Below, piece by piece: positions 836 to 40,100 of a DNA stretch of 64,000 nt. The notes beneath the pieces were generated by a model that was given only the letters and a program-made list of their open reading frames with translations, was not told the DNA's origin and did not search any database. Made by a program: the position numbers and the translations under genes. Each line of letters starts with the position of its first letter. The stretch's first letter is position 1. Source of the stretch: Mobula birostris (lineage: Eukaryota); assembly GCF_030028105.1 (NCBI RefSeq), contig NC_092400.1, forward strand, positions 13,578,001 to 13,642,000, read 5' to 3'.

Positions 836-883
836 ATTAACAGTTTTGACTTCAAGTCCTTTTGTACCTAGATTTGATCTTAC

Positions 884-10898: not shown

Positions 10899-11289
10899 CT
10901 ACAGAGGACAGAAAATGTAAAGTAAATAGAAGCTAAACATACTGAATGAAAACAGAAAAGTATATGAATCATCAACAATTGCAAGATGGCAAAAACTTAA
11001 ATCTACTATATTTTAAGATAAACACATGTCCTTAATGTTAGAGTTTAAACATATGCATGCATGTTTAACCTTGCATAATATACCTTATTTAGAGACTATT
11101 AAATGATTTGTGGAAACAGGCACAGTTAATTTATAAGTCGTCAGTCTTCCTCTCTTCATCGATCAACACTAACACTCTCCAGCCCTCTTCCCATCTAGAC
11201 TTATCCTATCCCCTTTCCCCAACCCTTTTCCCATCCAGCCTTTTGCCTCCAAATGGATCCCTCTCCAGACCCCTGAACACCCATCTCTG

Positions 11290-12934: not shown

Positions 12935-13132
12935 ATGAAGGCAGGCTGTGTTACTGTGATCGCCTGGCTTCTCTGGCTGAGGACTGCGAAGTGTTACGCA
13001 CCCCAGTCCCTGGGGACTCCCGATTCACATCGCTTTAAAAACGTTGCTGGAATAATTGAGCCCCGTTCGTCTGAAAATACTGTTAACACAAGCTCTCTTG
13101 GTCTGCTTGAAGCGACTAGTTGGTCAATTGAG
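12935..13132 (+). CDS. SLC8B1: SLC8B1 coding exon 1
   Basis: GCAATGA start. MKAGCVTVIAWLLWLRTAKC...SWSIE|gtacgt, phase 0, matches the next exon. Confidence 0.72.
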
Positions 13133-16100
13133 GTACGTCTTCTCTGTCTTGACCTAAATGTAATCTTGGGTACCCTGAAGTCTGTCTTTTAAATTTTATC
13201 TCTCTGCACTATTCTTTAATGGATTAATTTCGTGAGTTAGTAGGCAGCTTAATGTTTCCCCATCACTAGCTTGCATTTTCTCCATTCTGATTTTCATCAC
13301 CTAATTGAAGTTGGAAATGAGTTTTGATTTCTTACAAGCAATCGTGTAATTTTTTTTTAATATCCTCCCCTGTTAATGTAAGGAGCAGCCGTTTCCTCTG
13401 GTGTTGCTGGGTATGGTAGTGCTCTTCCCAAATTGGAAAAGATCACGAGGCTGTCACTTCAGCGAAGCAGTGAGGGTGTGCTTTTATAAAATGTCCCTTG
13501 AGTGGAGGCATTGAAAGTGCTATTTGCAGAGTGTGGGGAAGGGGGTGTCCTGCTCAATGCCCCCCACTACCCAGGCCATGCTCTCTTCTGCTTCTGACAT
13601 CTGGAAGGAGGTACAGGAGCCTTTGGTCCCAAACCGCCAGGTTCTGTAATGGTTATTACCCCCAACTATCAGGCTCCTGAACCAGCACGGAAAATTTCAT
13701 TCACCTCAACCCTGAACTGATTCCACAACTAATGGACTCGCGTTCAAGGACTCTACAACTCTTGTCCCAGGTATTATTTAATTTTAATATATGCAGCTTG
13801 TTTTCTTGTGCACATACAGGTACTGAGTCTAATGTATTCTACTGTGAATACCTGCAAGAAGATGAATCTCTGGGTGCCATATCTGTGAACTTTGAACTTT
13901 ATGCTAGTCAGCATTTCCGTCTTTCCATGTTAACTTTGTGGGAGTAGAGGATTTAATCTAATATTGGGGGTAAGGTGAATAATTTAGCCTAAAGCACTGA
14001 TTAAACTTTGTTTTCTTAATCCTCACAATTAGTAACCAGGTCAATTATTGGCACTAATTGAACTATTAAACCATTTTATCTAAAGCCAGTGGTGGGCAGA
14101 CAGCAGTATACCACTAATGTTCACAAAGATTTGAATTTTGTAAGCATCCTGGTTGAATACTGTCAAAACACTCTTCTCTTGGTCGTGATTTTTGCGCCAC
14201 TCTTTGCAGATGTCCTAGACTGTTCAGTTCTTGATGACCATAAATATTCCAAGCTCCACTGTTTAGTGAGTCAAACTATAAACAAGTTGATTTCCTCTTG
14301 AAGTAATGAGATAACTTGTTAGGCCTGGTTCTGTAAAAGTGTTTTTAGCTGCTTGTTATCTGTCTACAAAAAAAAAGTTTGCCAGTTACTAAGCAGCAGC
14401 CTCATTCCAGTAATATTCCTTCATTAATGAGCAGCATATTAAAACAAAAAGTCCTTCTGTAACCACACCCCTTGGCTGGCTGAACTTTGCAGCTGTGTTA
14501 TGTTACTTTGCTCTGGTTGTACAGAGGGTAGTGCTGCTGGTTCACAGCTCCAGCGACTTTGGTTTGACCCTGAGCTTAGTGCTGTGTATTTTCTCCAAGT
14601 TCTCCCCATTCCCCTCACCTCCTTAAAAACTTGTATGGTTAATTAGCTACTGTAATCATTGGATTTGGGTTGGAGTTGATTGGCATTTATATCAAATTAA
14701 TTAGCGTGCTGGTTTCCTAGTTTAAGCAATCTGATTAACGTGTAGGCAGCTGGCTATATTAATTATGCTAAAGTAAGGAATGTCAAAACTAAATTGCATG
14801 GCATCCCAAAGTATCAGCAGGAAAGTTTTTTTTCCCCTTGCAAGTTTTAGTACTTCAATATCTGCTAGGAGTTATCCAAAATTTATGTACAGCGTATTTT
14901 TTAAAATCTTAATTGGTATCATTTCTATTAGAGTCTTGATCTGAATGTCCCGTTTAGTTAAAAATGACCATTTTGTTGCATTTTTCTTAGCCTCTGGACA
15001 TTGACTGAAAACTATTTTCAATGAAGTGAAGTCTGGCAGTCAACTTTCACACAGCAAAGTCCCTCAGACTGGACTAAACCTGAACAGGATATATCAGCTG
15101 GTTGAAGACCACCCAATGCTTCTCACCTCTTTGAATGTTGTTTCATCTCCTGGATATGGGGGGACCTCATAGAAACATTTCAAATGTTGAAAGGCATGGA
15201 CAGAGTAGATGTGGCAAAGTTGTTTCCCATGATGGGGGAGTCTAGTACGAGAGGGTATGACTTAAGGATTGAAGGGCGCCCAGTCAGAACAGAAATGCGA
15301 AGAAATTTTTTTAGTCAGAGGGTGGTGAATCTATGGAATTTGTTGCCACGGGCAGCAGTGGAGGCCAAGTCATTGGGTGTATTTAAGGCAGAGATTGATA
15401 GGTATCTGAGTAGCCAGGGCATCAAAGGTTATGGTGAGAAGGCAGGGGAGTGGGACTAAATGGGAGAATGGATCAGCTCATGATAAAATGGCGGAGCAGA
15501 CTCGATGGGCCAAATGGTTGACTTCTGCTCCTTGGTCTTATGGTTTTATGGTCTTATGAATGTGAAAATTCACCTTCATCCCCCGATTGCTGCACAGTAG
15601 TGACTTGCTGAAAGTACTTGGAGTGAAAATTCTCACTGGTGCAGGAATATGATAATAAAATGGATGCATTTTGAGCAAACTTAAATTTGACCAGAACACA
15701 TGTTATGCGTCATCTTTAAGGAGTTCAGCAAACTCTCTTGTCTTGCTCTTTGGGGAGGCAGAAAAACAAATCCAAACTCAAATCCTGTTGTCTGAGCACA
15801 ATGATTTGTAAAGTGGAGACTTTCAATATGGACAATATTTAACTTAAACGTATATAAGAGTTGCTAACTTCTCTCTGATATTGTTAAGATGCCCCTATCT
15901 TTTTAGCAACATGGTCGGCAGTCAAAGTTGACAGCAACGATGCATACATCAAGATGTTCAGCATTTAACCCATCGTATAGATATTATTGCAAAGAAAGCA
16001 TGACCATGCCTCTATTTCCTCAGGAGTCTGGGGAGGTTTGGCACGTCAGCAAAAAAGCTTGGTGAACTTCTATAGATGTGAGGTGGAAAGTGTGCTGACT

Positions 16101-19100
16101 GGCTGCATTATGGCCTGCTATGGGAACACCGATGCTTTTGAGTGGAAAATCCTACAAATGGTAGTGGATTTGGACCAGTATCTCACGGCTTAAACCCTCC
16201 CAACCATTGAGTGCATCTACATGAAACATTGCCAAAGAAAAGCAGCATCCATCATCAAAGATCCTCACCACCCAGACCATGCGGTGGTGCCATCAGAGGG
16301 TACAGGTGCCTCAGGACTGGCAGTGCCAGGTTCAAGAACGGTTACTACCCCTCAACCATTAGGCTCTTGAACAAAAAGGGATAACTACATGTTATTTCAT
16401 GCTCATTATTTATTGCTATTAATTTATATCTGCATTTGCAGCTTGTTTATAGTTCCTGATGTTTACAGTTGAGTTACTGTTCTATAGATTTGTTAAGTGT
16501 GCCCACAGAAAAAGAATCTCAGGGTTGTATGTGATGACATGCATGTACTCTGAAAATAAATTTTACTGTGAGCTTTGAACATTTAGAAAGCATTGAGCAA
16601 TAGAATGAATGTTTTTAAGAATATAATGTTGAATAGAACTGAAGCTGCTAACTTATTTGCTGTCTTTTCTAGTGTCATAATGTAGTGCAGCTGAATGGGT
16701 CCCAGTGGTGTTCATTTGTAAAAACTACTGAAGACTGCAAAATTGGAAGTGGCTTTATTGACTACCTCAAAGGCGCTGTTTGTGGGTTTTACCATAATCT
16801 GCTACCGCTGGCTATCATTCTTTATGTAAGTATTGGCTATTTTGATTAAACGGATTAAATATGAAAATCTTTGTTAAAATATGGAAGTCCCAAATGTGTT
16901 AAATGTTCTTGGCTATCAGTTTTCTGCCTATGCTTTAATTTCTGTTTTTGGTTTCTATTTGCATAAAGTCCAGGGACAAACTCCAAACCTGACAAATTCC
17001 TCCTGCACATGTACTAGTAATCTGCTTTCTGGTTGGGCCTGGAGCATTTACAATTGAGTATTGTTGAATGGAGAGAAGTGGCTGTGGGTTCTAAGGTGCT
17101 CGTTGAAGTTTAACTTTTAAGCCTTTCCTTCTTTCGTTCTTTAATTTTGAAAGTACACATCAATGTACTGTAGTCATAGCCTGATCTTCAGACGGAAGTT
17201 TTGGGAGGAGGGAGCTATTCCCTGTGAAAGGCATCCGTTAGTCTTGCGAGACCATGGATCTGCGCCTGGAAAGTCTTCACTCTCCAGGGCGTAGGCCTGG
17301 GCAAGATTGTATGGAAGACCAGCAGTTGCCCATGCTGCAAGTCTCCCCTCTCCACGACACCAATGTTGTCCAAGGGAAGGGCATCAGGACCCATACAGCC
17401 TGGCACCAGTGTCGTCGCAGAGCAATGTGTGATTAAGTGCCTTGCTCAAGGACACAGCACGTTCCCTCGGCTGGGGCTCGAACTCATGACCTTCAGGTCG
17501 CTAGTCCAATGCCTTAACCACTTGGCCACGTGCTGAATTTTAAAAAAGAAGAAAAAAATGCAGTTTCCATCAATAGGTGTACCATTGCTGTGTGTCACCT
17601 CAACTACCTTTCAGTCCCCCAATCTGAACTTGAGCCTTGAGAACATAAATAACGTGCCTCATGTCTACCCCTCGAACTCACCTTAAACTTGTACCCTCCA
17701 GCATTTGATTGGACGTCATCATAGAGGAGGATGAGCTCGGACTATCTCGTTGATGCCTTTCATAATTTTGTAATCTTCTACCAGGCTTTCAATGCTGCAA
17801 CAAAAAAGGAATCCGAGTTTGTCTAACTTGTAATTGATACAGCCCAATCCATCTGATATACTGGTGAACCTCTTCTGCACCCTTTCCAAAGCCTTTACAT
17901 CCTCCTTGTAATGTAGAAACCAGAGCTGCACACATGGCTTGACTAAAGTTTTAAAGAGCCGCAATGTGAGTCCTTTTGTTACCACCCTATCCACTTGTTG
18001 CCACCTTCAGGGAGTTATAGATGTGCACCCCAAGATTATTCTGTATACCAGTGCTCTGATGGATCCTATCTTGTCCTGTATACATTCCTGTTGCATTTGA
18101 CCTCCAAAATGCATTGCATTACTCTTGTCTACAGTAAACTCCGCCTGCCATTTCTTTGCCCAAATTTCCAACTGGTCAATATCCTGGTATATCCTTTGGC
18201 ACCTTCGTCAACACACAGTTTCTTGTCACGTTGCTGATCAGACCACTTGCATTTTTCATCTAACCGAGAGGTACCAATCCTTGTGGAACACCTCAGGGGT
18301 CCCTTTACAGAGGGATGGCGGGGAGAGGGTGGAGTCCTCTGTCACTGCACTGTCTATTCAGTGTTGAGCAGATTTTGGATTCCGTTTCCTAACTTGTGGA
18401 TCCACCCCATCTTGATGAATACTGCCATAAAGTATTCTTTAAGGATATCACCCACCTTCACTAGTTCCAAACACAAATTCTCTCCTTTGACATTGAATAG
18501 ACACATTCTTTCCCCAGATTTGCTCCCAGTATGTTTAAAATGCCTTGGGGTTCTCTTTGAACCTCCTTGCCAAGAATATTTCATGGTCCCAATCAGCTCT
18601 CATAATTCTTGGTATAATTTCTTTCCTGCTTCTATATTCCTCAAGTGCCTTGTCTGATGTTTAGGTTCAACATAAGCCTTCTAAATGCTTCCTTTTTCTT
18701 TTTGCTGGAACTTGCAATATATCTTTTCATCCAATGTTCTCAAACCTTATCAGTCTACCCTTCATCCTCCCAGAATAAGCTGGTCCTGAACTCTGGCAAC
18801 TAGCTTTTAAAGGACTCCCAAATGTTGGAGGTACTTTTACTCTAAAAAGGCCGCTCCCAATCTATTTCTCCACTTCCTGCCCGATATTATAATAATACTC
18901 CCTCCACTCACCCACCACCAGTTTAGCACTTTCGCCAGAAGACTGGACTTATCCTTCAAAAAACTATCTTCAAAATGTTTTTGAAGTTGTGCTCTCTGAA
19001 CAGAAATCTCTCCCACTGAACATCCAATCATCTGGCCAGAGATTTCCCAGTACAAAGACAAGTATGGCTTCTTCCCTGATTGAACTAATGAAATATTGTT

Positions 19101-22100
19101 TCAGAAACAGTTGTGATATAGCCTAAATTCTGAGCCGGCTAAGCCCCCGATACAAAGGGAGGCCCAATTAATATCAGGATAATTAAAATCCCTCATTACG
19201 CTAACATTGTTGGTTTTAAATCTTTTCACGAACTGCCTGCATGCATATTTGCTCCTCGGGCTTTTGGGAGACCTTCAGTATAATCCCTTCACTGTGATTG
19301 CACTTTTTTAAAATTCCTGGCGTCTACCCATGTGTTCTTGCTGGATGAGCCCTGCACTGCATCTTTTCTCATTGCAACTGTAGCATTCTCCCTAATCAAT
19401 GACACAACTCAGCTATCATATCTGCATCTACTCTACTCTAAAATATTGAGCTGCTAATTCTGCCCTTCCCTCAATCTTTTTATCTGTAATACCCAGAACA
19501 TGTGCTAAACCAGACTCCATTCTCATCTGCTTTTTCTAAATAAGGACACTTTAGATTGTCATTCCCAAAGTTTTCCTTGACTTGCCTCTTGTCTGCTCTT
19601 CCTAGTAGACTTGACCTAACCTCTACCTCCCCCTCAATCCTTCCACTTGGTGATTCACAGCCTGGTTCCGACCCAGCTCTACGCCAGTTTAAACCCTCCC
19701 AAGTACCACTAGCAAAGCTCACTGCAACAATGTTGATGCCCCTCCAGTTTGGGTGCAGAGTGTGCTTGAACAAGTCATCTCCTTGCCTTGGAATGAATCC
19801 CAATGATCCAGGTATCCGAAGCACTCCTTGCATTTTCTTATTTCTGCCCTTGCTAGCAGCAATCTTTTCAAAATACAGTATTTAAAAGCTGTATCTTTAA
19901 TCCACTTTGCTATGGGTTTTGTGCTCTCCTTGCTGCTTTCTCCCCCTAATTTGAGCTCCAATAACTCTTGGCTAATTGTACTCAGTTTCTTTTTAAGGCC
20001 TCAACTGTTAATTTGTATTGTACAGAAAATGCTGGAGGAACTCAGCAGGTCAGGCAGCATCTATGGAATGAACAGCAAGTTGATTTATTTCAGGCTGAGA
20101 CTCCTCTTCAGTCCTGATGAAAGGCCTTTGAAAGGTCGACTGTTTACTCTTGCCATAGATGCTGCCTGACCTGCTGAGTTCCTCCAGCATTTTGTATGTG
20201 TGGCTTTGGTTTCCAGCATCTGCAGAACTTCTTGTGTTTATGATCTGTATTGTGTTCGTGGGCATTGCCCCTTAATCAGTAAATTGAATTATGAACAGAT
20301 ATTTCTTGGATTGATACAGTAGTTCACACTTTCTAAAAATGGCTGCCTAACCTTAATCTCATCTTGTGAAGATTATTTTCAATGATCACACATGGTTTAG
20401 ATGCATGCTGCGTGAAAAATAGCAGATCAGTCGTTACTGTGAGTCTTAATGCACAAATTTGTGATGTTCAGAAATATCCCAATAGTGAATTTATCAGTTA
20501 ATACGGCTGTTTAATGTACAATTATCATGAACTGATCTTGCTGTTGATTATGTGATTTGCTGTGTACAATCACTTGTAGCTGTGTGGGTTTGCAAGATTT
20601 ACATTAGAACCTTGTCGGTTCGATTTAGAGTGGCATAGAAACTATTTAAACCACTTCTGCTTCCTTTTCACATTGTGTTATCGTCAATGCACTCTTCTCA
20701 TAACCTATTTTAGAGAAGTATTAAACCAATTTTTCTTGGCTTTGTACTAGTGCCAGTGAACAAAATACATGGGTTGTAAAATAGGCTAAAATGCGGCTGA
20801 TGGTATTAATTTGTTCTGGGCTATGGATTTGAATTTCTACTAATGTTTGATATCAAATTGTAAGACATTTAAATGAAGGCACTGAATGAAGCACTCTACT
20901 GATTAACATCATTTATACTTTACACAGGCTGTTTGGTTGTTCTACCTATTCATGTTCCTTGGAATAACAGCTGAAAAATTGTAAGTTTTGTCTTTCGGCA
21001 TTTAATCTTGAATCTTTCACTGACACTTGCCTACTAAGTTCTCAAAGTAACTGTCAGTTTTGTGCTCTATATTATTGAAATTGATTCTGAATTGTGTCTT
21101 TAGTGGTGTTCACGCTTCATTTTCTGGTAAAACTTTACTTTCCCATCCCTTTTAAAAATAAAGATGCAAATGTAGCATAGTTGAAGACAATTAACTGAAG
21201 TGAGGTATCAGAAGCTACTTGGACTTCAAAGTAGAGATGTCCCTCCAGCCCAAAGCAAGTTACCACTGCACAGTATTTCCAGGCTCCAGCATATGAAGGA
21301 CAAAGTTCTTTATGTTAGAAAAAGGTACTTGCCCTGTGTTCTGAAACTTGTGGCAGTGAGTTGTTAGCCAATTATTCTAGATTTTGGTGAGATTGCAATC
21401 CATTTCCTTCACAATGCGTTTGTCTGTTCTGCAGCCCCAAATGCTAAAGTGATTGAAGTAAAGGGGGAGCTGAATATTTCTGCTGACGCACTCTGTCTCT
21501 CCCTGACCTTCAGCAATAAAGTGATAAAATGTGTAATCATACCATTCTGTATTTGGCATTTTCATCAGTCTTTCTGTGCTCTCCAAATATTCTGATTATA
21601 AATAAATTGAAAGTTGTTTTTCTTGGAATATTCTTGAAGTTAAATCCAGAGTGACTGGCACCATAACTTTTCTGTAGTTAGTTGGCACATAACAGCAAGT
21701 GCTATTTAATGAAAGTATAGATTCTCCCATTTTCCCATACACTAGCAATTTTTCAATGTTATGATCATAAATATCAAGTCTAATTATTTTGCTTCTCCAG
21801 CTTTTGTCCAAACCTGGCTGCCATATCTACAAGTTTAAAGTTGTCACATAATGTGGCAGTATCCTTTATGCCTTGAATATATTTAATGAGTGATAATTGG
21901 TTGTATTGGGTGAGCGCAATCTTTGAATGGCATGTTAAGCTAGAACTAATTTTTGTGTTCTAGCTGGTAATGTTGTCACACCTACACATCTAGATATTTG
22001 CATTTGTATAAAGGAAACAACCTGACAGAATGAATGGTCTCAAAATAGAGTTTATATTTGGGGTTCAAAATATCAATATTACCTGGTTCTTGGCTCAGAT

Positions 22101-25100
22101 TTGATTTGAGGTTTTTGCTGTTTTTTTTTAAATTGTTCTTTCACTGGAGCAGCGTAGGGTTGACAGAAGTACATTGTTCAATACTGCTTTGCACTTGAGG
22201 AAGGATATGTGCTTCCATCTTGAATTTCAGTCTGTGGCAAATGTTTTCAAGAATAATGTTGGGGAGGAAGTTCTAGGGTCAAAGAAACTTTTGAGCTCGT
22301 GTGTGACTTGGGCAGATGTTTAATAGTGTCTTTTTGTTCTTTTGGTTGGTTAAGTTGAGTTTGCCAATTGTTCTGCATGTTTTAGATGCTGCACTAGAGT
22401 AATTATTTAGGGTTGTATTGTCAGCTTTGTTACAGCAATTTCCATGTTTTCTAGGCAGGTTTCAAGAAATCCATTGCACTCCCAGTTGGTCTTTGTGACG
22501 GGTGCGAAGGCTTGGGTATTATACTTTCTCTGAAGAATATGCACTTCTGGCTGTGATTGCCATTTTGAAATCAGAATCAGGTTTATTATCACCCACATGT
22601 GTCGTGAAATTTATTAACTTAGCAGCAGCAGTTCAATGCACTACATAATATCGAAGACAAAAAAATAAATCAATTTACAGTATACAGTATATATATCGAA
22701 TAGATTAAAATCTTGCAGCAAAACAGAAATAATATGTATTATAAAAAATGACCTAGTGTCCAAAGATTCAATGTCCATTCAGGAATCGATGGCAGAGGGG
22801 AAGAAGCTGTTCCTGAATCGCTGTGTGTGTGCCTTCAGGCTTCTGTACCGCCTTCGTGATGGTAACAGTGAGAAAAGGGCATGCCCTGGGTGCTGAAGGT
22901 CCTTGATAATGGACGCTGCCTTTCTGAGACACTGCTCCCTAAGGATGTCCTGGGTACTTTGTAGGCTAGTACCCAAGATGGAGCTGACTAAATTTACAAT
23001 CCTCTGCAGCTTCTTTCAGCCCATGCAGTAGTTAACCCCCCCTCTTTTTGTCTTACTGATGTTGGGTGCCAGGTTGTTGCTGCAACACCACTCCACTGGT
23101 TGGCATATCTTGTCTGTGACTGAGCGGTCTGTGGATTGGTGATAACATATCCTTTTCCCTGACGATCAACACTGGCGCACCTCGGGTGTGTGCTTAGCCC
23201 ACTGCTCTACTCTCTGTATACACATGACTGTGTGGCTATGCATAGCTCAAACACCATCTATATATTTGCTGATGATACAATCATTGTTGATAGAATCTCA
23301 GGTGGTGATGAGAGGGCATACAGGAGTGAGATATGCCAACTAGTGGATTGGTGCTACAGCAACAACCTGGCACTCAGCATCAGTAAGATTAAAGAGCTGG
23401 TTGTGGACTTCAGGAAGGGTAAGACAAAGGAACACATACCAATCCTCATAGGGGAATCAGGAAGTAGAGAGAGTGAGCAGCTTCAAGTTCCTGGGTGTCA
23501 AGATCTCTGAGGATCTAACCTGGTCCCAACACATTGATGTAGTCATAAAGAAGGCAAGACAGTGGCTATACTTTATTAGGAGTTTGAAGTGATTTGGCAT
23601 GTCAACAAACACACTCAAACTTCTATAGTTGTACAGTGGAGAGCATTCTGACAGGCTGCATCACTGTCTGGTATGGAGGGGCTACTGCACAGGACCAAAA
23701 GAAGCTGCAGAAGGTTGTGAATCTAGTCAGCTCCATCTTGAGCACTAGCCTACAAAGTACCCAGGACATCTTCAGGGAGCGGTGTCTCAGAAAGGTAGCA
23801 TCCATTATTAAGGATCTCCCGCACCCAGGGCATGCCCTTTTCTCACTGTTACCATCAGGAAGGAGATATAGAAGCCTGAAGGCACACACTCAGCGATTCA
23901 GGAACAGCTTCTTCCCCTCTGCCATCGATTCCTGAATGGACATTGAAGCTTTGGACACTACCTCACTTTTTTTTTTAATATACAGTATTTATTTTTGCAC
24001 ATTTTAAAATAATCTATTCAATAAATGTAATTGATTTACTTTTATTTTATTTATTATTATTTTTATTTCTCTCTGCTAGATTATGTATTGCATTGAACTG
24101 CTGCTGCTAAGTTAACAAATTTCACATCACATGCCCCTGATGATAAAATCTGATTCTGATCCGGTTAAGTTTCTGTTTAACTACTTTACTCCCACTCTGC
24201 CACACAACAGTCTCTTAAGATACGGGTTTCCTATTGAGTATCACAGGGTAGGTATTTAGATTATGAACTATCTTGCTCATGGTATGCACCACGTATCCAG
24301 TTTAGCCCTAATCTTGTAAGGGGGCATGAAATGATCCATCTGTCTGGAGTTGCAAATGTTGGCTATGTGAGCGGGAGAAGGGGCATTGTCATGAAGCTGA
24401 GATGACCGGCTTTCAAACACAAGCTCCCTTTGTGCAAGTCCAGCCAGGGGGAGGATGCTTCGCTCAGTTCCCAATGCCCTCATTCAAATATTTCCTTAAT
24501 CCTGAAGGTATTGAATTTCACATTGCTCAGTATTTTGTACCAAGCTAGCGATCTGAAATGGAGCTGGCCCTACCCAGAAGGCAGGTTTGAGAAGCATGTT
24601 AACATCAAAAGGTATTGGCACACGCCGAACCCTTCCAACAGAATTGTCACTTGTATTGGCCATATCCCCCGATTTATTTATTTATTTTTGGGGTGTACAG
24701 GAAAGGTATCAAATGCCATTGCTTCAGCTAAAATGGAACAACTTGGCTAAAGGCTTTAACCTTGCAGCAGGATGCTTTCCTGCCCAGTGATACAAGGCAT
24801 TTTATCAAAGTTAAAGTAAATTATTATTAGGTATGTACAGTATGTGTCACCATATACTACCTTGAGATTCATTTTCTTGCCAGCATTTACAGAAATGCCA
24901 TAGAATTTTTGAAAAACTAGACAAATAAACTGGTAAACTACCAACATGCAAAAGAAGACTTTTACACACTCTCTTTGCAGAAATGGTTAAGTGGAACATA
25001 TTTACCATGGGTGAGGAATTGAAAACTATTAAATTGCATGAAGTATGACATCCTCTTGATTATTTTGGCTCTTCTGCCTCCCCATTTTTTTTTTTTTTTT

Positions 25101-28100
25101 TTAAACAGCTTTGAAGTTTCCCATTATCATTAACGTCACTAAAACCCCAGAGAGCGCTAGGAATACTTGGGCCAGGCACCATCTTTGCAGAGTGAATGCT
25201 GCTGTCTGGACTTGAGACCCTTTGGGAACTCAAAATGTTAAATTTGTTTTTGTTTCTGCCCCCTTTCTTTGTATCTAAGTATCTGAAGGTGGAGTCAGAC
25301 TGATTTCCACAAGTGGTGGGGGCTGAAAGGGTGTGAAGATGTAAAAAATCAGATTAATACAAGACTTTGCCTTTACTTTTTTCTGCACCCTGAACGTGTT
25401 ATTCAGTCTGTCTCTACCCTTTCTCAAACTAATTACTCCACATCTACTCTTGCCCTTTCAAGGATAAAGTTAGAAATCGAGCAGGTTTCCTGTTAGTGAA
25501 AAAATCGTTGTGCTAAAGCATTAGTTCTGTTTGCTGAGTGTGTCCAGTACTGTTTCAATATTTGATTACTATTTTGCCTTTTGATCAATGTGTCATTGTT
25601 AAGTGTTAGAATTGTTCCATGGTTTTGAAATTGCCCAGTCCATGATCCAAACCATCTTCACTCCTGGTTGCATCGTGACCTGGTGTAGAAACACCAATGC
25701 CTCTAAACAGGACGCCCTCCAAAAAGTAGTGGGCATGGCCCAATGCATCATGGGTAAAGCCATCCCCCACCATTGAGCACATGTACGTGAAGTGCTGTCA
25801 CAGGAAAGCAGCATCCATCATCTGGGACCACACCACCTTGGTCGTGTTCTCCTCTTGCTGCTGCCATCGGGAAGAAGGTACAAGAGCTTCAGTGCCCACG
25901 CCACCAGGTTCAGGAACAGTTATTACTCTTCAGCCAGTGTGGCTAACTTCACTCATCCCATCACTGAGCTGCTCCCACAACATACGGACTTGCCATTTAT
26001 TTGTATTTGCGCAGCTTGTCCTTTGAACACTGATTGTTTGCCCATCTTGTTGGGTGCAGTGTTACATTGCTGGTTCTTGGATTTACTGAGGATGCCCACA
26101 AGCAAATGAATCCCAGGATTGTATGTGGTAATATTTATACACTTGATAATAAATCTACTTTTAAACTTTGAACGTGCTGCCTCTCCTGAATTATCTGCCT
26201 GCCAGCAAGATTTCTGATATTCCGCTTAGCTGCTAGTTGGCTGAAGATCAAGTTAGAGGAGGTTTTTCTTCAGTTTCGTGGTAATCAGTGCAGTTAAATA
26301 TTTGTCCAATATCAAACGCCTTGTATCACTTCCTCTCTTCGCACCTAGGGCAAGCCCTTCTCAATTAATGAGCAAGTGGGTCAAACATCTGTGCACTGAC
26401 TGTTTTGAATGGATAACCTTGAAATCAACCTTCAATTTATGATATCTTTGGTGTCTCTGATGTGAATTGTTACAGTTAAGAAATTGTAAGATTATTCCTA
26501 TTGGACTGCATCTCAATTTTCACTAACTTTTTTTACTCAAAGAAACACTATTTAACTATCGTGGGTTTTTATTTTAAAGATTTTGACATCTGTATCACTT
26601 ATCCTTGACTGGTTTTATTTATGGTGTAACTTTCCTTGCCTTTGGTAATGGAGCTCCTGACTTATTCAGTGCAATTGCAGCCTTTTCTGATTCTAGAACA
26701 GCAAGCCTGGCAATTGGAGCTTTGTTTGGTAAGTCGCATATTTTCTGCATTACTTTTTAATTGTTTTGTTGATCGCTGGTCATTGCCTTTAAAGTTCATT
26801 TTGGAGAAGTTGCTTGACCATGATGTCATCTTTGCTGGGAAGTGACCAAATGAATCATGTATCAGAGTGGGAAGCAAATTGGATATGTCAGTGGATATGT
26901 CAGTGGTTATGGAAAAGGGCATAGAGCTTACTGTCAACCACAGTAAACATCTTTCTTTGCAGAAAGGCCATTTGATTAGCATGTGAACAGACCTGACTCA
27001 GAAATACGACTCTAGGATCAATGGGTGGACAACTAGGGCTGGATGGCTATTGCAAATATTATTCCCATTAACAAGTGCAGAGACTGGTATTATGTTTTGT
27101 AACTCCAAAAGAAAAGGGGGGGGGGAAACACAGGTGCTGGGATACTTGTGTATACTTAGTTTCGCTTTGGTGAGGCAAGCACATATGATGTGGTGAAGTA
27201 GTGATGTATGCCACTCATGTACTTTTATATATAACCACTGAATTATGTAAACAAAAAATGGTTAATCAAAATGTGTTGATAATACTTTGGCTGTCCATCG
27301 ATGTTTCAATGTTGACTGAGGCCTGGGCAAGGTTGTATGGAAGACTGGCAGTTGCCCATGCTGCAAGTCTCCCTTCTCCACGTGACAACAGCGGTGCCAA
27401 GCTGTATGGGTCCTAGTGCCCTTCCCTCGGACAACATTTATAATACTAATTGATTATTAAATACACCATACTACTACTCAGCACTACTAACTACTCCAAT
27501 ACTGAATTCATTGCTCACAGTGCATTCTTTAGACTCTGGGCAAATATTTCCGCTAGCGAAACGCACTACGCTGACGCTGAATCAGAAGCTTGCCGATTTC
27601 CTCCTTGCGTATCACAACGCAGCACACTCTGCGAACGACAACTCACCAGCTCTGCTGTTCCTGAGCCGCCCCTTGCACTTAAGCTTGGATCTTCTCAAAC
27701 CCAATCTCAGGAGGAGTATGCAGGACAAACAGCTGAGGCAAATTGAGGGCTCCTCAAACGAGATTTAACCCTTAGCTTAAAGAATTCACACTTGTCGCGT
27801 CATGCTGTGAGCCCATAATCTTCTAATCTTTTTAATGACGTCTTGAGATTTTGGAAATATTCCTTAACTCATCACCGCTAACGATGTCATCCAGTGAGCG
27901 ACTAGGCAGCCTTGTAGCTCCAGATCTATAACTTTCTGCCAGAGTACAGGTGCAGATTCTACTCCAAAAACAAGCCTATTATGGTGATATAGCCCTTTGT
28001 CTGTTGATGTTGAGAAACATTTTGGACTCCTCTTTCTCCGTGTGTAGGTAGGCCTCAGCGAAATCTACTTTGCTGAAGTGTTTCCCTCCAGAAAGGTTTG

Positions 28101-31100
28101 CAAAGATACCCTCTATCCTGAGCAGAAAGTTGCTCTACTTTCAGTACTGGGTTATTGGTTTTATTAAAATCATTGCAGATCCTGACAGACCCATCTGAGC
28201 TACTGGAATTGTCCATGGGCTCCACTTAACATTGGAAAGAATTCTATCAGCCTCCACGTGATCTAGTTCTAGCTGCTTTATCATGGTTGGTATAAAGAAC
28301 TGGATGGGCTTTGCAAAACTTGGATGTGGCATTTTCACTAAATCCTCTTTAAAACCAGAAGTGCTAAGAGGGTTTAAACAAAAAGTGTAAGAGGGACCGC
28401 AGACTGTCGCACGAAACACAAGGTTGTTTCACTAGGTGTTTGTAACTCTCCACATATTGACTGGGACTCCCATACTGTAAAAGGACCAGGTGGGATAGAG
28501 TTTGTCAAATGTGTTCAGGGAAGTTTCCTTAATCAGTACATGGAAGAGCCATGAGAGGGCGTGCAGTACTTGATAATGAGGCAGGGCAGCTGACAGAAGT
28601 TTGTGTAGGTGAACACTGTGCATCTAGTGATCATTTTGCCATTGGTTTCAAAGTAAGTGTGCAAAAAGGTAGGTCTAGTCCTTGGTTTGAGGTTCTAAAT
28701 TGGAGAAAGGCCAATTTTGATGACATCAGAAAGTGTCTGGCAAATGTGGATTGGGGCAGGCTGCTTTTGGGCAAAAGTGTACTTGGAAAGTGGGAGGCCT
28801 TCAAAAGTGGTATTTTGAGAATTCAAAGCTTGTATGTGCCTATCAGAATAAAAGGTAAAGATAACAGGTATAGGGAACCTTGATTTTCAGAGATATTGAG
28901 GCCCTAGTTAAGTGAAAAGATGTACACTGTAGGTATAGGCAGATGGGAGCAAATTGGGTGCTTATGGAGTATGAGAAATGCAAGAGAACATTTAAGAAAG
29001 AAATCGGGAGGGCCTCTGGAAGATCAGAATGGTAATCCATGCGTGGAGCCAAAAGATATCTTAAGTGCTGTTTTTTTTTCTATCTGTATTCACTCAGGAG
29101 ATGGACAGAGTCTATAGAAGTGAGGCAAAATGGCATCGACTTCACGGGCAATATACAGATTATAGAGGAGGAGGTATTCGCTGTCTTGAGGCAAATTAGG
29201 GTGGATAAATCCCCAGGGCCTGACGAGGTGTTCCCCTTTGGGAGGCAAGTGCAGAAAATTCAGGGGCCTTGGCAGAGATATTTAAATCACCTCTGGCAAT
29301 AGGTGAAGTGCTGGAGGACTGGAGGATAACACTGCTTAAGAAAGGCTCTTTTAAAAATAAACCAGGAAATTTTAGGCCAGTGAGCCTGACATCAGTACTG
29401 GGAAGTTAGTGGGAAGTATTCGAAGGTACCAAATATGAGTATTTGGATAGATAGGGACTGATTGGGGGATAGTCAGCATGGTTTTGTGTATGGTAGGTCA
29501 TGTCTAACCAATCTTCAAGGTTTTCGAGGAAGTTAGCAGGAAAGTGGATGAAGGCAAGGCAGTGGATGTTGTCTATGTGAATTTTAGTAAGGCATTTGAC
29601 ATGGTACATCATGGGAGGTCGTTCAAGGAAGTTCAGTCATGGCGTTCATGATGAGGTAATAAATTGAATTAGACATTGGCTGTGTGAGAGAAGCCAGAGA
29701 GTGGTAGTAGATGGTTGTCTGTGACCAGTGGAGTGCCGCAGGTATCGGTGCTCGGTCCGTTGTTTTTAGATTATGAGAACACTCAGTCCTCTTTTATTGT
29801 CATTTAGAAATGCATACGTGCATTAAGAAATGAGACAATGTTTCTCCGGAGTGATATCACAGAAAACAGGACAAACCAAAGACTAACACTGACAGAACCA
29901 CAAAATTATAACATATAGTTACAGCAGTGCAAAGCAATACCATAATTTGATGAAGACCAAACCATGGGCATGGTAAATAAAGTCTCAAAAGTCCCCCGAG
30001 TCGAACAACTCCCGAGTCCCTGATAGCGGTGGCAAAGGGAAGAAACTCCCTGCCATAAACCTTCAGGCACTGTCAACTTACCAGTACTGTACCTTGGAAG
30101 CAGCCGACCACAGCCAACGCTGAGTCCATCTGTCTGAAAACTTTGAGCTTCCAACCAGCCTCTCTGATACAGCCTCCCGAGCGCCATCCTCTGCCGAGTG
30201 CCTTTGACCTAGCCCCGGCCGCTGAAACAAGCAAAGCTGAGGCTTCGCGGCCTTCTGCTCCGGAGATTCTGGTTACCACACAGTAGCAGCGGCAGCGAAG
30301 CGGGCATTTCAGAAGTTTTCCAGATGTTTCTCCGTACTCCATCAGATCAGGATTGTGCACGGCCCCCTACTTGACAGATAACAGATATTCATCACCGGAG
30401 AGGCCGCGTGCGCTGCTGTCGTGCCGCCATCTTCTCCTACTCCATCTTTAGGAGGACATCCATATCAATGAACTGGATGATGTGGTAAACTGGATCAGCA
30501 AATTTGTGGATGACACAAAGATTGGAGGAGTAATGGACCGTAAGGAAGACTGTCAACACTTGCAGTGGGACCTGGACCAGCTTGAAAAATGGGCTGACGA
30601 ATGGTGGATGGAATTTAATGCAGACAGGTGCAAGGTGTTGCAGTTCGGAAGGATCAGCCAGGGTAGACCTTGTATAGTGAGCAGCAGGACGCTGAGGAGC
30701 GCAGTAGAACAGGGGAGTCTGGGAATACAGATCTATAATTCCTTGAAAGTGGTGTTACAGGTTGAAGGGGTTGTGAAGTTTTTGGGTCATTGGCCTTCAT
30801 AAATCTTATTTTATATTGAAGTTGAATAAAACATTGAGTATTTGGAGTATTATGTGTCGTTTTAGTCACCTACCCACAGCAAAAATGTGAACAAGGTTGA
30901 AAGAGTAAATTCACAAGGATGTTGCAGCGTCTGGATGACCTGAGTTATAAGGAAACATTGAATAGGTTAGGGCTGCATTCCTTGGAATGTAGGAGATTTG
31001 ATAGAAGTATACAAAATTGAGGGGTATATTTAGGGTAAAAGCCAGCAATCTTCTTCCATTGAGGTTGGGTGGGACCACAGCTAGAAGTCATGGGTTAAGG

Positions 31101-34100
31101 GTGAAAGGTGAAGAGTTTAAGGGGAACATGAGGGGGGAAACTTCCTGAGGAAGGTCGAGAGTGTGGAATGAGCTGCCAGTGCAAGTGGTGCATGCAAGCA
31201 TGATTTCAACGTTTAAGACAAGTTTGGATAGATACATAGGTGGTAGGGGTATGGTTATGGTTGATAGGACTAGGCAGTTTAAGTGGCTGCGAATGGACAC
31301 GTTGGGCCAATGCACTGCTTGTGCTGAACTGTTCTATGACTCTGTGTTTGACTTTTCCAATTCCATCCTTAATCACTGCTGTGGCATCATCCAGTACCTT
31401 TCTTAACTTTTAGTTGCCTCTATTGTAGAGGAGGTAGCTTGCAAATGAAGTATAGATTTCCAATCAAATTATAGTTGTCTCAGGCAATCATGACCACACA
31501 ATCCTGGGCGTCCTGTTCTTAACAAGTATATGTGGCTTGTTGGTTGTTGTATTTCACTGTTATGAATGTCATTCCCACAGGAGTTGTCTTCTCTCTCGTA
31601 TAAGTCCTTAGTCCAATATCTGCAGTTTTCAGTTCAGTATCTTTGAAATGTCATTCAAATTCATTTTGTGGATTGACTGAAACAGCTGACCCAGCGTCCA
31701 GTTACTTTTTAATTAATCTGCCATTCACTTCTGGTGTAAGCTATTTTGCTTGTCTCCCGTTAGTTTTCACATTTTAAATCTCAAGACTATTCAGTCCTGT
31801 GTCATTCTCATCATCATCATCAGATTTTTCATCAACAGCATGTAGATGTGTGCTCTTCTTGAAACTGCTTGACTTTTTATCTTTCTCTTCCTTGTACAGT
31901 CCATTTATTTTTGTCTGCCCAACATGCTCTTTATGTGTGTGCTACTTTGTTGCATTTTCTACAAGTTTTGCCTTTAAACCTACATTGGTCTGGTGTATGT
32001 GAGCCTCTGCCGCAACGGTAACACTTTTTTTGGCCAGGCAGATTTTTGTTTAGACGTCGCAGTTTTGTTCACGCACTCTTTCATTCCTGACTGCTACTCA
32101 GTGGCATCTCTGGCTGTTGTTTCCATTGATACAGTGATTTCAACTGTTCTTTTAAATGTGTGTGCTTCAGTTAGGAGCAGTTGTTGAAAGCTTTCTTGTA
32201 AAATTCCACAAACTAAACAACCTCTCAGTGCATCACAAGGCCCATCACTGAACTGACAATGCTCAAGCTGTTTCCTTAATTCAGCCACAGAAGCTGAAAT
32301 GTACTCCCCTTCATTTTGATTCTGCTTACGCAAACTTAAAGTATTTTGCAATCAACAATTGTTTCAGTTCTAAATGTTCTTCCATTATGTTCACAAGATC
32401 AGCAAAGCTCATGGCTGGTTTCGTTAACCCTCAGTAACATTGGCACACTCTTCTCATTGACTACCTCATTTGCTTTAAAATACTGCTCAATTCATTCAGT
32501 ATACAATATTCAGTTATCTCTTGTGCAATCAAATGTGCTTATCTTTAGGATGTTTCTACTTTTTATTTGTTGTTATCACCTGGTACTCTGTTTATGAATG
32601 TGTGAATTTTGTCTGCTTTCTGCCTTTTTAAAAAAACTTGACTGTCTCCCCCCTTCTGGAGGAAAATGCACTTTTTTTAAACTGTACTGTGGAGTAAAGG
32701 AGTATGTAAACAAACAATGCTCAAACAATATATTTTCAATATTACTGAAATATTAAATATGCAATTGATCAGTCTAGATATGAAGAGAATGGGTAAACAC
32801 TTGGAGAAGTGAATTAGCTTGGAGAAAGGCAAAACTAAACTTTTATTAGACAGTTTTTTAGTAAGCAGATCAATGAAGGATATGTGATGCATATGTATAT
32901 TTCTATCCTTGGGATAAATATTTGATAGTGCCTCAGGAGAAAAGGCCTTTTTTTTTTCTTTAGCAGTTTGCCACTACTGTAGTCCTTGTACATATCAGGA
33001 ACAAAGAAGCAGACAGAAACAATCATTATAGACTGACCCATCCTGCAAGCTGTCTTTTCCCAGAGCTGGTTTCTGCAAAGTGCTAGAGGGCTATTAAAAG
33101 TTTAAAATATAATGCCCTCTTAAAAGTTGCTTCTACCAGGCAGTTAGTCTGATCAACCATTCTAGTTAGCAACCCCCCCCCCACCCAATAACCCAGTCAA
33201 TACACTGTAAATACCTTTTAAACCACTTTCTATAATGCTGTTTACATTGTTAAAAATTAAATTAAGGCTTAAATTAAATTAGTCTTGCGAGACCATGGAT
33301 CTACGCCTGGAAAGTCTTCACTCTCCAGGGCGCAGGCCTGGGCAAGTTTGTATGGAAGACCAGCAGTTGCCCATGCTGCAAGTCTCCCCTCTCCACGACA
33401 CCAATGTTGTCCAAGGGAAGGGCATTAGGACCCATACAGCTTGGCACCAGTGTCGTCACAAAGCAACGGTGTATGGTTAAGTGCCCTGCTCAAGGACACA
33501 ACACGCTGCCTCAGCCAAGGCTTGAACTCACGACCTTCAGATCACTAGACGAATGCTTTAACCACTTGGCCACGTGCCATTGTAAATGCTGGCATTATGC
33601 ACATTTTATTCCCTATCTGTACTCTATTTTCATGGATTTCTTTATAATTATTGAATGTGGTTGATTTGTTTTGTTGCATGTTATGCCCACACACCACAGT
33701 AATGGTGATGAATAAAATGTGATCCCTGGTGGGAGAATGAACTGTGAAGGAGAAAGAATAGAAGCAGGATAAACAGGCTGAAATTCTAAAGGAGTGTAGA
33801 AACTGTGGTGTGGGGGGGGTGTTGAGGGAACAAGGAATATTGCAGCTTAAAACAACCAGGGTTCTAATGAAGATCAGGTGCTGTTCATAAAGCTGATCTG
33901 GCCACAGTTGAGATGTGTTCCTTTCCGCGTATCTCACTTGAGCGTAGAAGTGAAGGATTTTGATCAGCTTGCTTTTCTGTCAGAGAAAGAAAGTTTATGC
34001 AGCTTTTTCCGATCCTGTGCAGTGGCCCCTCTGCAGCAGAAATTTGCTAGAGTCTCTGGTGATGTAACAAATCTCTAAATGAAATATAACTACAAAGCTT

Positions 34101-37100
34101 CAAACTTTTCACCGTTTTGCAGGTGCTGGTATATTCGTGACCACAGTTGTCGCTGGAGGTGTTGGCTTTGCAAGACCATTTATAATCGCATCCAGACCCT
34201 TTCTTCGAGATGTAATATTCTATATGGCTGCAGTTTTCTGGGCTTTCCTAGTCATCTATTATGGGCGTATTGATTTGGGGCAAGCACTTGGTGAGAAACT
34301 TGCTCAAATTTCAAGAATAAATGTCAATTGATTTTAGCTTCTGACAACTTGTCAATTTAGACATGTAGTAATCTATGTCTTCACATGTATATTGCATGTG
34401 ATCTCCACAGGTTACTTGGCACTGTATGCAGTTTATGTGCTTGTGGTCATTGTAAGCAGTATAATTTACAAGAAGAGCAAAAATCAGCTACAAAATTCTC
34501 TTTGCAACAGTCATCCGGAAAGTAAGTGAATTGCTAATCTTGTGCTTGACTGAGTTAAAATTCTAGTTATAATCCTAGAATGACTACCTGCAGTAGGTTA
34601 TACAAAAGCTGTAGCCACGTACAGTATTGTGCATACAGTATATAGCTAGGGTGATTAAGACTGCTCATAGTGCTGTATTTGTTAAAGTGGAGCGGAGTTT
34701 GTAAACCTGGTGGGAGCAAAGGATGTTGGGGAATGGTGAGGGCGGAAGGGATGTGGGACAGGTGGCGGGGGGGGGGGTGTGGGTACGGACACGCCCATCC
34801 CTGAGACATCACACAAGGTCATCTGATTCCAAACTATTGGTTTACTGATCATTATAGAGTGACGCTCTGGTGCTTCCTGCTCTCTCCCCTCTGCCTTCCA
34901 CTTTTCCCAACCACAATTCCCCTCTCTGTCTCCTTCCCACTCCCAGTCCACACTAGAGACCCACATCAGGATCAGATTTATCATCACTCATGTCATGAAT
35001 TTTTTTTGTGTGTGTGGTAGCAGTACAGTGCAATGTGTAAAATTACTGCAGTACTATGCAAAAGTTTTAGACACCCCTAGCTATCTGTGTGCTGAAGACT
35101 TTTACACAATATTGTAATTTACTGGTGGGGGAGAAAGTTGAGTTCCTTTTGAAATGCATATCCTCATCCCACACTATAAATCTAGATTTTGCCAATTTTA
35201 GGGCAGAGCTTGTGTGTAGATTATTGGTGGCTTGTTTTGTGTTAATTTTTAAATTGCCTTATTCTGAAAGAAAGAATGTGATTTCCGCTTTTGGTGTTAC
35301 TGTATAGTCTGCTCTGTGACTTGTGACATGGTACACTGTGTGGAAGACTTAGCAGTAAACAGCTGCTAATCATTCTGCTTTAATTTACTGATACTGTTTG
35401 GGACAATATTCCCAGTTTGGTGCCACACAAGTCATCTTGAGATTTGCATGTTGTGCTGGATGTAGTAACCAAAGTAATTGCTGTCTTTCCAGTTTGTGAC
35501 ACTGAGGATGCAGTTCCAACGTGCACCAGGAGGTTCATGCATGAAGACTGTAAGCACTTTCTTAACCTAAAATAGATTTGTGCTATCTCTTTTATTTTTG
35601 CAAGAGCCCTCTAGAACTGTGTGCTATTTTCAAATGTATAATGTGCAGAATTTATTGGAGTTGAGCTATTTCACTGCCTTACTTTCAATCCTTTGCATGT
35701 TGGCATGTGGCAAAGGCGGTTTCTTTCTTGGGCCATTGTCATGCAGTGGACTTCAGTGACAGATTGATTGCGTTTTGCTTTTGCCTTGGTAATGCTTCCC
35801 ATCTGCTACAGTCCAGACCATGAGTTTCTGACCAGAATTTTATTCCCTCAGCGAGCGAATATCAGTCCTTAATTGAAAATGAAGAACCCAAATCTACAAA
35901 AGCCATTTTGGCGGACTCTCTTAATCCCATTGACCTTCAGAAATGGAGGAGGAAACATCTGCCTTGGAAGATTTTCAAATGCCTGAAGGTAATTTCTGCT
36001 TGTCCTATAAAGCATAAGAGCAGAATTAGACCCTTTAGCTCATTGAGTCTGCTCTGCCATTCCATCATGGTTGAATTATTATCCCTGTCAACCCCATTCT
36101 CCTGCCTTCTTCCCATAAGTTTGACACCTTTACTAATCAAGAACCTATTAATCTACATTTAAAATGTACCCAATTATGTTCCTAAGGAGACATGTTTGGT
36201 GAATAGGGTTGAGAGGAGGCGGTATCAACTTAATACTACCCTAAAATTCCGAAATGTTCATATTCCTAGAGATGCGAGTTAACTTAGTTCATGAGATTTC
36301 ATCCTAATTTTTAATACATTCTGCCCTGAGTTGCTGAGCTTTGCTATCTTACTATTTTGATGTCACATTCAAACAAAGGAGAAATGTTTTTATAATTGGA
36401 AATGCTACATTCTGGATTATTAAGTGTGTCAATTAGATGGTTTTGATGTCCTTAAATTTGGGACAGTAGAGTAGCATAGTGGTTAGCACAATGCTTTACT
36501 GTACAAGTGATCCAGGTTCAGTTCCTACCGCTGCCTGTAAGCAGTTTGCATGGTCTCCCTATGACTGCGTGGGTTTTCTCCCACAGTCTAAAGCACTGTA
36601 CCAGGAGGTAGGATAATTGGTCATTGTAAATTGTCCTGTGATTAGGCTCGAATTAAAATTGGAGGGTTGCTGGTTAGTGGGGCTGCACTGTACCTAAATA
36701 AAATATTGGGCAAGTGCTTTAGCTGCTCTATATATTTAAAAAAAAAACAATTGAGCTATCTCTCCACGATCCCAGACACTTGACACTTCAGCATGCTAGT
36801 TAGTCATTGCTCGACAAACCAGAGTTATTTTCCAGAACTGAATTTTCCATTAGTCATTTCATTCTGGTTTGTCTTTTTTTTTTTTTTTCCTTGCCCCACC
36901 CCCTCTTCCCTCCACCTGTTTTGGTTTAGTTTTCTCATTTTTATACTGGCAGTCTATACAATTACAGAAATGTACAACTACTTTCAACATTCAGCTATAA
37001 CTTCTGTTTTTTTTCCCCTCTCTCTTTCAGCTGCCAATAGAGTTTCTGCTTCTACTTTGCGTTCCCGTGGTTGACTTTGACCAAGATGACCACAACTGGA

Positions 37101-40100
37101 AGCGGCCCCTGAATTGTCTGCAAATAGTTACTGGCTCGCTTGTCTGCATCCTGGTATTTAAATCAGGCTATTGTAAGAATAATTTGCCTTAAACCTTGTT
37201 AGCATAGTGATCCGAATATCAAAAAGAGATCTCGGAAAGGGCAGCCCAAACTGGAGTGGTTCTGGTTGAGATTTGACATCTCACTGAGAAGTACAGTTGG
37301 TTCTCAATCTTGAACATTTTGAACTAATACTATCCGGGAGGGGACATTTTTTTGGGTTTTTTTGTCCAAAAATGAAACATCTGCACGGGGGGGGTGGGGG
37401 AATGAATTTGCGTAACTAATGCTTTCGTATTTTGCTGTTGGTTTTCCATCCTCACTGCTGACTCATTGAGATAATTCACCCCAGATGTTCATTTTTTTTC
37501 CAGATGTTTTATTGTTGAAAGTGCAGAGGATTTTAAAATTGTACATGACAAAAAAAAAGTTGGTCTTTAGTTTGGCTGTGTCAAGTTGCAGATGTGCTTT
37601 GAGCATGACTATTGAGGTCATTGGACTGATTTTGGAAAGCGCTAATACAGGATTTGGAAACTAGCTGGTTTTGAATGTTGCTAACGGAGTGACACGGTAG
37701 CGTAGAGGTTGGCAAACGCTTTACTGTACAAGCGACCCAGGTTCAATTCCCTTCACTGCCTGTAAGCAGTTTGTACATTCTCCCTGTGACTGCATGTGTT
37801 TCCGGGTGCCCTCCCAGTCTAAAGACGTGCTGGCTGGTAGGTTAATTGGTTATTGTAAGTTGTCCCATCATTAGGCTGGGATTAAATAGGGGGATTGTTG
37901 AGCGGTGTGGCTCTAAGGGCTGGAAAGGCCTGTTCCACACAGTATTTTAATAAATAAAGAATTTAAAATATAGCTCCTGGAAAGTTGAAAAATAATTTTA
38001 GTTGAATATCTATACTTCCATGTGCCATATTGTTCTATATTGTTGTCAATGATTTTAAAATGGAAACCTTTTGAATGGAGACTCTGCTTTTAACCATTCC
38101 AGGCTGAACTTTATGGCTTAATGCTCTGTTGGGCAACAGAGCTATTTAGATCTGACAAATAGTAAATTCAGACTGTGGTTTCTTGTCTTGGTCTCCATTT
38201 TCAATGGAGAATAAATTGGGTGTGAGGTCACCTTGCTGGTATCCATTAGGTAAATAGTTATTTTTCCCTTTGTACACTAAACGTTTAGTCTTGACGCAAA
38301 TATATTCTGGGCAAAATAAATGTGAAGAGTGCAAGAGCAGCGCAGTGGTGCAGCTAGTAGAGTTGTTGCATAACACTTCGGAGACCAAGAGCCAATCCTG
38401 ACTACCCATGAGGAGCTTGTTCTTCCTCTGACTGGGTTTTCCCCAGGTACTTTGGTTTCCTCTTTTATCCCAAAGACACGGGTTCAAAGGATAATTGCCT
38501 TAAGCATGGGTGGGTGGGAGAATCTTTGTAGGGGAAGGGGGGCCTGATTCAGTGGGAATATAGGTGAATAAAGTGAACTACATATGTGGTTGGTATGGAC
38601 CTGTGGTCTTAAGGCCTTGTTTCTGTTTCTCTGATTCTGCTCTGAAACAAATAGAATCCTTTCCCCCATGAAGTAACACATGGACTTGTGTCAGATTTGA
38701 TCATGGCACGGAGTCACTGTCCCTGCTTTATCCTGGATACTGTCCTTTGCAGAACTTTTCAATGAATGAATTCTCATTTCTGTAAGGCTTACTGGGATTG
38801 TTTTGTATTTTCTGTCCAGCAGGACGTGGGGACTGCCTTGGACTTGGCAGAGTGTGTGGGGTGGGGTGGGAGGAAAATGCATATTCCAAAAAAAAAAGGG
38901 GTTTGCATAGCATACTGATATAGGGGATTGGTTTAGAGCAAACTGGAATAACTGGTCATTTCCTGGTGGGTGCAGCATTTAGTAGTGTACCCCAAAAGCG
39001 TACAATAGGGTAATTGTTGCTTGGAAAGCCTGGTTTACTAACTTTATTTGGAGAAGGAAATTTGCCATCCTTGTTGGGTTATGTAATTCGAGACCTTGAT
39101 GTAATTAACAGTCAACACCTGAGGTCTCAAAGGCAACTTGACTCAAGGCAAGGATGTATGATAGCAACAGTCCACTTACCGTAATTAATTTATTCTTCTT
39201 GGGGATTAACACAGTTTCCTTACACAGGGCTCCAAGATGACAGCTGAAGTACCATTTGGGCTTCTGTGTCTGAAGGACAAACGTGTTTTTTGGGCTTGTC
39301 TTGTGTGCTTCATGTATTTGTTTTAAGCACAAATTTACCCTCTGGTACACGAAATTTGCCTTATGAAGAGTAAGGCGGACCCACAGCCTAATTTGGATTG
39401 TAAATTTATGAAACTATAATGCTGAGGTTTGGGAAGGCTTGGTGAGTATAATCAAAACAAGTTTGGATACTCAAGGATCTGAACACATGATTATCAGATG
39501 GAAAGCTGAACACCAGGCAAGGTTATTTGTGCAATAGTAGAACCGGTTTGATTGGGAATGGAGAAATGGGTGTATCTTAATGGCCAATTGCTGTTTCTTC
39601 TTGTAGATATAAAATGGTATTTTGTCATTGAGCTTTAATATGCTGCACTAGTCATTAATTATATGATCCATTTCTAATTTATATATTCTTACAGCAGTAT
39701 TGTTTTCATGTGAGATCGCTTAACTTTTTTGGTTAGATGGATTACTACTCATCCATGGCCACCTTCCTGTATGGAGTCTTACTCTGGTGATTTCGTTGAT
39801 CTTGGCATCTATAGTTTTCTTCTCAACAAAGAATGAGGAACCACCAAAGTTTCACTGTGTAAGCTATCAATCCAGATTTTTATAAAGCTGCTTTTTGAAT
39901 GATTGTGTATTATACAATACTGAGGCAGTATTTGATTTCCATGTTGAGACTTGGCTCCAATCTAAATATCCACCAGATGGCTTTACTCATGTTTTCCCAG
40001 TTGCATTCTTAAAAATTCCTTCTCTGTTGGAGGAAGTCAGTGCAATCTTTACAAACACAACCTGAGGGTCTCTGCCTGAAACTTCAGCAGTTTACTTTTT

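Follow-up and report, generated by a model that had tools for sequence, protein, structure and literature searches.

The closest described systems are the U12-type introns of mammals that open with GT and close with AT. Table 3 of Sheth et al. (2006; PMC1557818) places such an intron in SLC24A6, the old name of NCLX, in both human and mouse, within a tally of 4 human and 3 mouse GT-AT U12 introns, and the same source states that these introns are often mis-mapped and, citing Dietrich (2005), that GT-AT ends give productive but less efficient U12 splicing. In human, the intron spans 163 nucleotides (nt) and is recorded in the supplement of Parada et al. (2014; PMC4176328), backed by 327 reads across the junction from 14 tissues and by 6 complementary DNAs and 12 expressed sequence tags, and supplements of the CENATAC paper (PMC8280824) give it as GT_AT, at hg38 chr12:113320687-113320849, with flanks NVA/GV. 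The present analysis concerns intron 4 of the NCLX/SLC8B1 gene of a ray, Mobula birostris, located in a stretch of 64,000 nt (NC_092400.1, positions 13,578,001 to 13,642,000) that is hereafter called the window and supplies all coordinates.

The ray GT-AT intron is real and of an already known kind, with a published orthologue in human and mouse. Taken together, the data assign a probability of roughly 0.88 to the reading that it is the orthologue of the known NCLX/SLC8B1 GT-AT minor intron and is removed from GT to AT, likely by the U12 spliceosome. The ray and mammalian introns have in common the gene, the phase-0 NVA/GV junction, the donor GTATCCTTT, a CCTTGAC branch and the AT end, the last answering a comparison of orthologues that a sequence-only reading of the window had proposed; the ray gene also has the second U12 intron, of the GT-AG subtype, in common with human SLC8B1. 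They differ in host (a cartilaginous fish rather than a mammal), in terminus (TAT in the ray, CAT in human) and in length, as the ray intron reaches 4764 nt, part of it filled by retroelement pieces. The human G-type sheet that was searched holds 7 GT_AT rows, SLC8B1 included, and the other human GT-AT U12 introns (ADAT2/DEADC1, ALG6, OCRL, GPR89A/B, CACNA2D2) share the G-type donor, U12 branch and AT end; they lie in different host genes and no mechanistic difference was found. A literature search for the minor intron of SLC8B1, SLC24A6 or NCLX, with minor-intron databases outside its range, returned no dedicated study and nothing on fishes. One supplement of Lin et al. (2010; PMC2831892) contains no row for SLC8B1, and the ray state may already be catalogued in Table 3 of Larue and Roy (10.1101/2022.09.24.509304).

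Intron 4 of the ray NCLX gene

The features on which the argument depends are as follows.

12935..43428, plus strand: coding region of NCLX/SLC8B1; 15 exons, 1794 nt, 597 amino acids
21801..21858, plus strand: exon 4; 58 nt; peptide ends in LSHNVA, DNA ends in AATGTGGCA at 21858
21859..26622, plus strand: intron 4; U12-type, phase 0, GT-AT, 4764 nt
21859..21867, plus strand: U12 5' splice site GTATCCTTT; 0 mismatches to RTATCCTTT
22570..24160, plus strand: decayed high-copy retroelement pieces within intron 4; among them a fragment of reverse transcriptase (23163-23507) that scores under the Pfam cut-off
26601..26609, plus strand: U12 branch site ATCCTTGAC; 1 mismatch to TTCCTTRAY
26621..26622, plus strand: non-canonical 3' terminal dinucleotide AT; the intron closes with TTTAT
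26623..26728, plus strand: exon 5; 106 nt; opens with GGTGTA, peptide starts with GVTFLAFGNGAPD
41491..41571, plus strand: intron 13; U12-type, GT-AG, 81 nt; branch TTCCTTAAT; 0 mismatches to the U12 donor

The host gene is the SLC8B1/NCLX orthologue. The 597-residue product of the 15-exon model differs from NCLX of Mobula hypostoma at 8 residues, a neighboring exon matches that protein at 100%, PDB matches are to NCLX alone, and exon 5 is single-copy in the 4.0 Gb host genome. Exon 5, across whose junction with exon 4 the peptide reads SHNVA/GVTFLAFGNGAPD, aligns with residues 141-175 of rat NCLX, a segment that includes the Ca2+ ligands N149 and D153 (PMC12571890). Both the identity of the gene and the position of the intron directly before the exon with these ligands (rat numbering), which the sequence-only reading gave as the alpha-1 ion-binding repeat, are thereby upheld.

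Intron 4 opens with GTATCCTTTA from 21859, and its presumed branch-point A, at 26608, lies 14 nt before its last base. The donor lacks G at +5, and no long pyrimidine tract is found near the acceptor. Introns 4 and 13 carry the sole perfect U12 donors among the 14 introns of the gene, the other 12 being GT-AG introns with 3-7 mismatches to that donor. Motif counts in the window are no higher than chance (donor RTATCCTTT, 4 against 1.87 expected, with 11 of 100 shuffles reaching 4; branch TCCTTRAC, 4 against 4.45 expected), and placement alone is informative: two of the four donor matches fall precisely on exon ends of the NCLX gene. A scan of the window with Rfam at gathering scores gave no match.

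The canonical U12 subtype end, AG or AC, is absent at intron 4, which ends in AT. Downstream of the branch motif the first AC occurs at 26629-26630 and the first AG at 26652-26653, both out of frame, and when seven acceptor positions were tried the full frame of 597 residues was recovered from 26623 only, the other six ending at 155-192 residues. The earlier claims of a U12 donor and branch 14 nt from the junction, of no AG or AC between the branch motif and exon 5, and of an acceptor at AT/GGT dictated by the reading frame thus stand.

Direct evidence for the join comes from assembled contigs, which give no measure of retention. The join 21858/26623, with ends GT..AT, occurs in contigs of all three presumed-RNA runs (X14 and X16 from organism A, X17 from organism B; two species) and is absent from the one DNA run, and exon-to-exon joins argue for the RNA status of X14, X16 and X17. 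Placement of the cut is ambiguous by one base, since ends TA..TG would yield an identical mRNA, and the GT-AT assignment therefore derives from the U12 donor consensus and not from reads alone. At the genomic level, the DNA-run contig spanning 25952-27194 shows 0 substitutions and 3 gaps, and in DNA contigs of organisms B and G (26400-27000; all tallied changes listed) 26621-26622 is unchanged. The two conditions under which the sequence-only reading would fall, a sequence error at 26622 or use of a different acceptor, are accordingly not supported, since DNA contigs show T at that base and the acceptor at 26623 is the one used in transcript contigs; donor, branch site and assembled-transcript join together bear out a U12-type intron with GT-AT ends.

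Acceptor choice in minor splicing is generally fixed by distance from the branch point. In the likely mechanism, ordinary minor splicing, U11 and U12 would recognize the donor GTATCCTTT and the branch site ATCCTTGAC, the acceptor, with no AG or AC in range, would be placed by its 14-nt spacing to the branch A instead of by an AG, and the terminal G...T pair would be a tolerated, known variant. The U11, U12 and U6atac genes are present in the host genome above Rfam cut-offs, and duplexes were predicted for the donor against the genome's own U11 and U6atac and for the branch site against its own U12. Predicted pairing of the intron 4 donor is -8.5 kcal/mol with U11 and -6.4 with U6atac, and that of the branch site with U12 small nuclear RNA is about -7.5 kcal/mol. 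U6atac pairing is strongest for introns 4 and 13, the next best of the other 12 reaching -3.7. Consistent with these predictions, the minor spliceosome is probably the enzyme that removes intron 4 in the ray.

Intron 13 follows closely on the second alpha-repeat region, at a junction that in human SLC8B1 likewise holds a GT_AG U12 intron (PMC8280824, supplement).

Terminal dinucleotides in other lineages

Metagenome contigs were scanned for a U12 branch motif before exon-5 codons, yielding 64 loci, of which 18 were set aside: these genes have no intron, and the match to the branch motif falls in their coding sequence. The remaining 46 form 33 groups at 95% exon identity (16 of the 33 being close relatives of one another), and 21 groups contain both intron ends; because a U12 branch site is part of the pattern, introns that were converted or lost escape the scan. 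At the same codon boundary, the non-vertebrate ends in these 21 groups are AT-AC (12), GT-AG (5), AT-AA (2), AT-AT (1) and GT-AT (1), with AT-AG in none of the 21. Two loci, L013 (AC) and L057 (AA), have identical exon peptides and different intron ends. The GT-AT member, L048, has a 74-nt intron at the same position (upstream of 2947, minus strand), and its nearest named relatives are mollusc and other invertebrate NCLX, at up to 92% over the exon. The relationship of this GT-AT locus to invertebrates suggests that the intron was already present when L048-related invertebrates and vertebrates diverged, and that its ends are labile outside vertebrates. Five further loci (L010, L029, L032, L038, L060) are divergent NCLX-like genes in which this codon boundary likewise has a U12 branch site before it and an intron end of AC or AA; these are possibly non-animal, in which case the intron would predate animals. 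In a tree built from 35 exon peptides (38 columns), 1 of 28 inner branches is starred, and the order of the end switches is not derivable from it.

Switching of U12 subtype between AT-AC and GT-AG has been described previously (Burge, 1998, as cited; Lin et al., 2010, PMC2831892; Sheth et al., 2006, PMC1557818), and the NCLX intron resembles those cases in that orthologous introns differ in terminal dinucleotides. It differs in that the likely intermediate named by Sheth et al. (2006; PMC1557818) is AT-AG, whereas AT-AT and GT-AT are seen here. The GT-AT state of ray and mammals may have been inherited from a common ancestor: ray, human and mouse agree in it, and the introns read through in bird and mammal models end in AY. 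Rays and mammals diverged more than 400 million years ago, and the shared state would be that old if inherited.

Protein models and neighboring features

Among 120 proteins of the vertebrate set, 71 are joined correctly at this intron and 21 read through its end; the motif is missing from 27 and forms the start of 1. The claim that automated annotation would mis-model the junction therefore held in part: in 21 of 92 vertebrate NCLX models, 16 from birds and 5 from mammals, the region of the branch site appears as protein sequence, and all 16 cartilaginous-fish models with the motif, M. hypostoma included, are joined correctly. In each of the 21 read-through proteins, which come mostly from related birds and are not independent, a His (CAY) precedes GVT, and the intron end in those 21 is thus not AG.

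Residue 161 (window 26641, TTT) is the last Phe of GVTFLAF, before GN, in M. birostris, and organisms B, C and G have CTT (Leu) there. Leu occupies this position in 15 of 16 cartilaginous-fish proteins and Phe in all 76 other proteins of the vertebrate set; the Phe of M. birostris, a neighbor of the Ca2+ site, has likely reverted recently.

Elsewhere in the window, a 3.3-kb block occurs three times in tandem at positions 395-10275, with 99.9% identity between copies. Each copy includes a 174-nt phase-0 exon of PLBD2 on the minus strand, at 884-1057 in the first, with phospholipase B-like 2 as its PDB match. If real, these blocks would triplicate a PLBD2 exon in frame; they may be an assembly artefact. 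Another exon of the Phospholipase B family lies at 10805-10941 (minus strand), placing a PLBD2-like gene head to head with NCLX, the same arrangement as in human. The open frames at 56145-59005 resemble pol pieces of a long terminal repeat (LTR) retrotransposon.

Alternative explanations and significance of the AT end

That the major (U2) spliceosome removes intron 4 at a non-canonical acceptor is conceivable, as U2-type GT-AT introns are known, that of DGCR2 being one (Sheth et al., 2006; PMC1557818), yet the perfect U12 donor without G at +5, the U12 branch motif 14 nt from the end of an intron with no long pyrimidine tract, and the classification of the human orthologue as U12 in three catalogues make this most improbable. 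Retention of the human intron moves in the same direction, from 0.43 to 0.77 in ZRSR2-mutant samples, a change that is not significant (PMC8280824, supplement). Less credible still is the proposal that intron 4 is a normal GT-AG intron whose T at 26622 arose through faulty assembly or as a private variant, or that the true acceptor lies elsewhere. A single base does separate AT from AG, and the confirming DNA run is possibly the assembly's own sample; against this, organisms B and G carry the same two bases, human and mouse have the same AT end, the transcript contigs carry the 21858/26623 join, and all six other acceptors tried truncate the protein.

Several points weigh against the U12 GT-AT reading favored here. 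U12 dependence in the ray is presumed, and the U11 and U12 energies by themselves do not cleanly separate the introns of the gene (intron 6 reaches -7.1 with U11, intron 9 -7.4 with U12). The RNA status of X14, X16 and X17 is guessed, none being on record as RNA, and 15 of 585 joints are listed, leaving room for minor alternative acceptors. Among the DNA data, run X1 may be the assembly's own sample, X11 lacks coverage of the acceptor, and organism C is insecure, as by tally three unlisted changes, one of them T>C, belong to X9. Additionally, the His before GVT is compatible with AC as well as AT, and ray-mammal continuity is drawn from two ends of the tree (the ray; human and mouse).

A further explanation shares the splicing mechanism of the favored reading and differs only in why AT persists. 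On this account selection keeps the AT end as a brake: intron 4 would be removed slowly, part of the RNA would retain it or be spliced wrongly and end short of the exon that binds Ca2+, and the level of NCLX would be tuned in this way. The ends are the same in ray, human and mouse, whereas Sheth et al. (2006; PMC1557818) report borders conserved from human to mouse in only 10 of 24 introns of this sort; an AG-type residue is found in none of the 21 read-through vertebrate proteins; and a retained intron 4 would stop translation 5 codons in, before the Ca2+ site. Human retention values are mixed and offer a hint of such a brake rather than support for it, and the same goes for the suggestion of the sequence-only reading that slow or imprecise splicing may limit NCLX output. 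In the supplements of PMC8280824, control retention of the GT-AT intron exceeds that of its GT-AG partner in two of three data sets (0.249 vs 0.124; 0.427 vs 0.053) but not in the third (0.063 vs 0.077), in a HeLa row 10 reads are spanning and 0 map to the intron, and perturbation brings no significant change for the GT-AT intron, at low counts. Moreover, the read-through proteins are mostly those of related birds, and the ends switch freely in non-vertebrates, even between L013 and L057 with their identical exon peptides. Selection as a brake is unlikely, and the AT end would more plausibly persist because it is tolerated and close to neutral, in an old intron with ends that have wandered in other lineages. 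Somewhat more doubtful than the brake itself is a broader conjecture in which the NCLX intron represents a second subtype route, AT-AC to AT-AT to GT-AT to GT-AG, with jawed vertebrates halted at GT-AT for over 400 million years; the weak end, placed immediately ahead of the ion-binding exon, would have been kept for throttling production of the mitochondrial Ca2+ exporter.

As a discovery the ray intron carries little weight, the intron being an already tabulated member of the GT-AT class. Its odd end explains a recurring annotation error, in which intron-derived residues are placed just before the Ca2+-binding motif (21 of 92 models), and its presence in the ray extends the shared GT-AT state from mouse and human to a cartilaginous fish. 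Because five terminal pairs occur outside vertebrates, the NCLX intron is a single locus at which neutrality and selection of odd U12 ends can conveniently be told apart.

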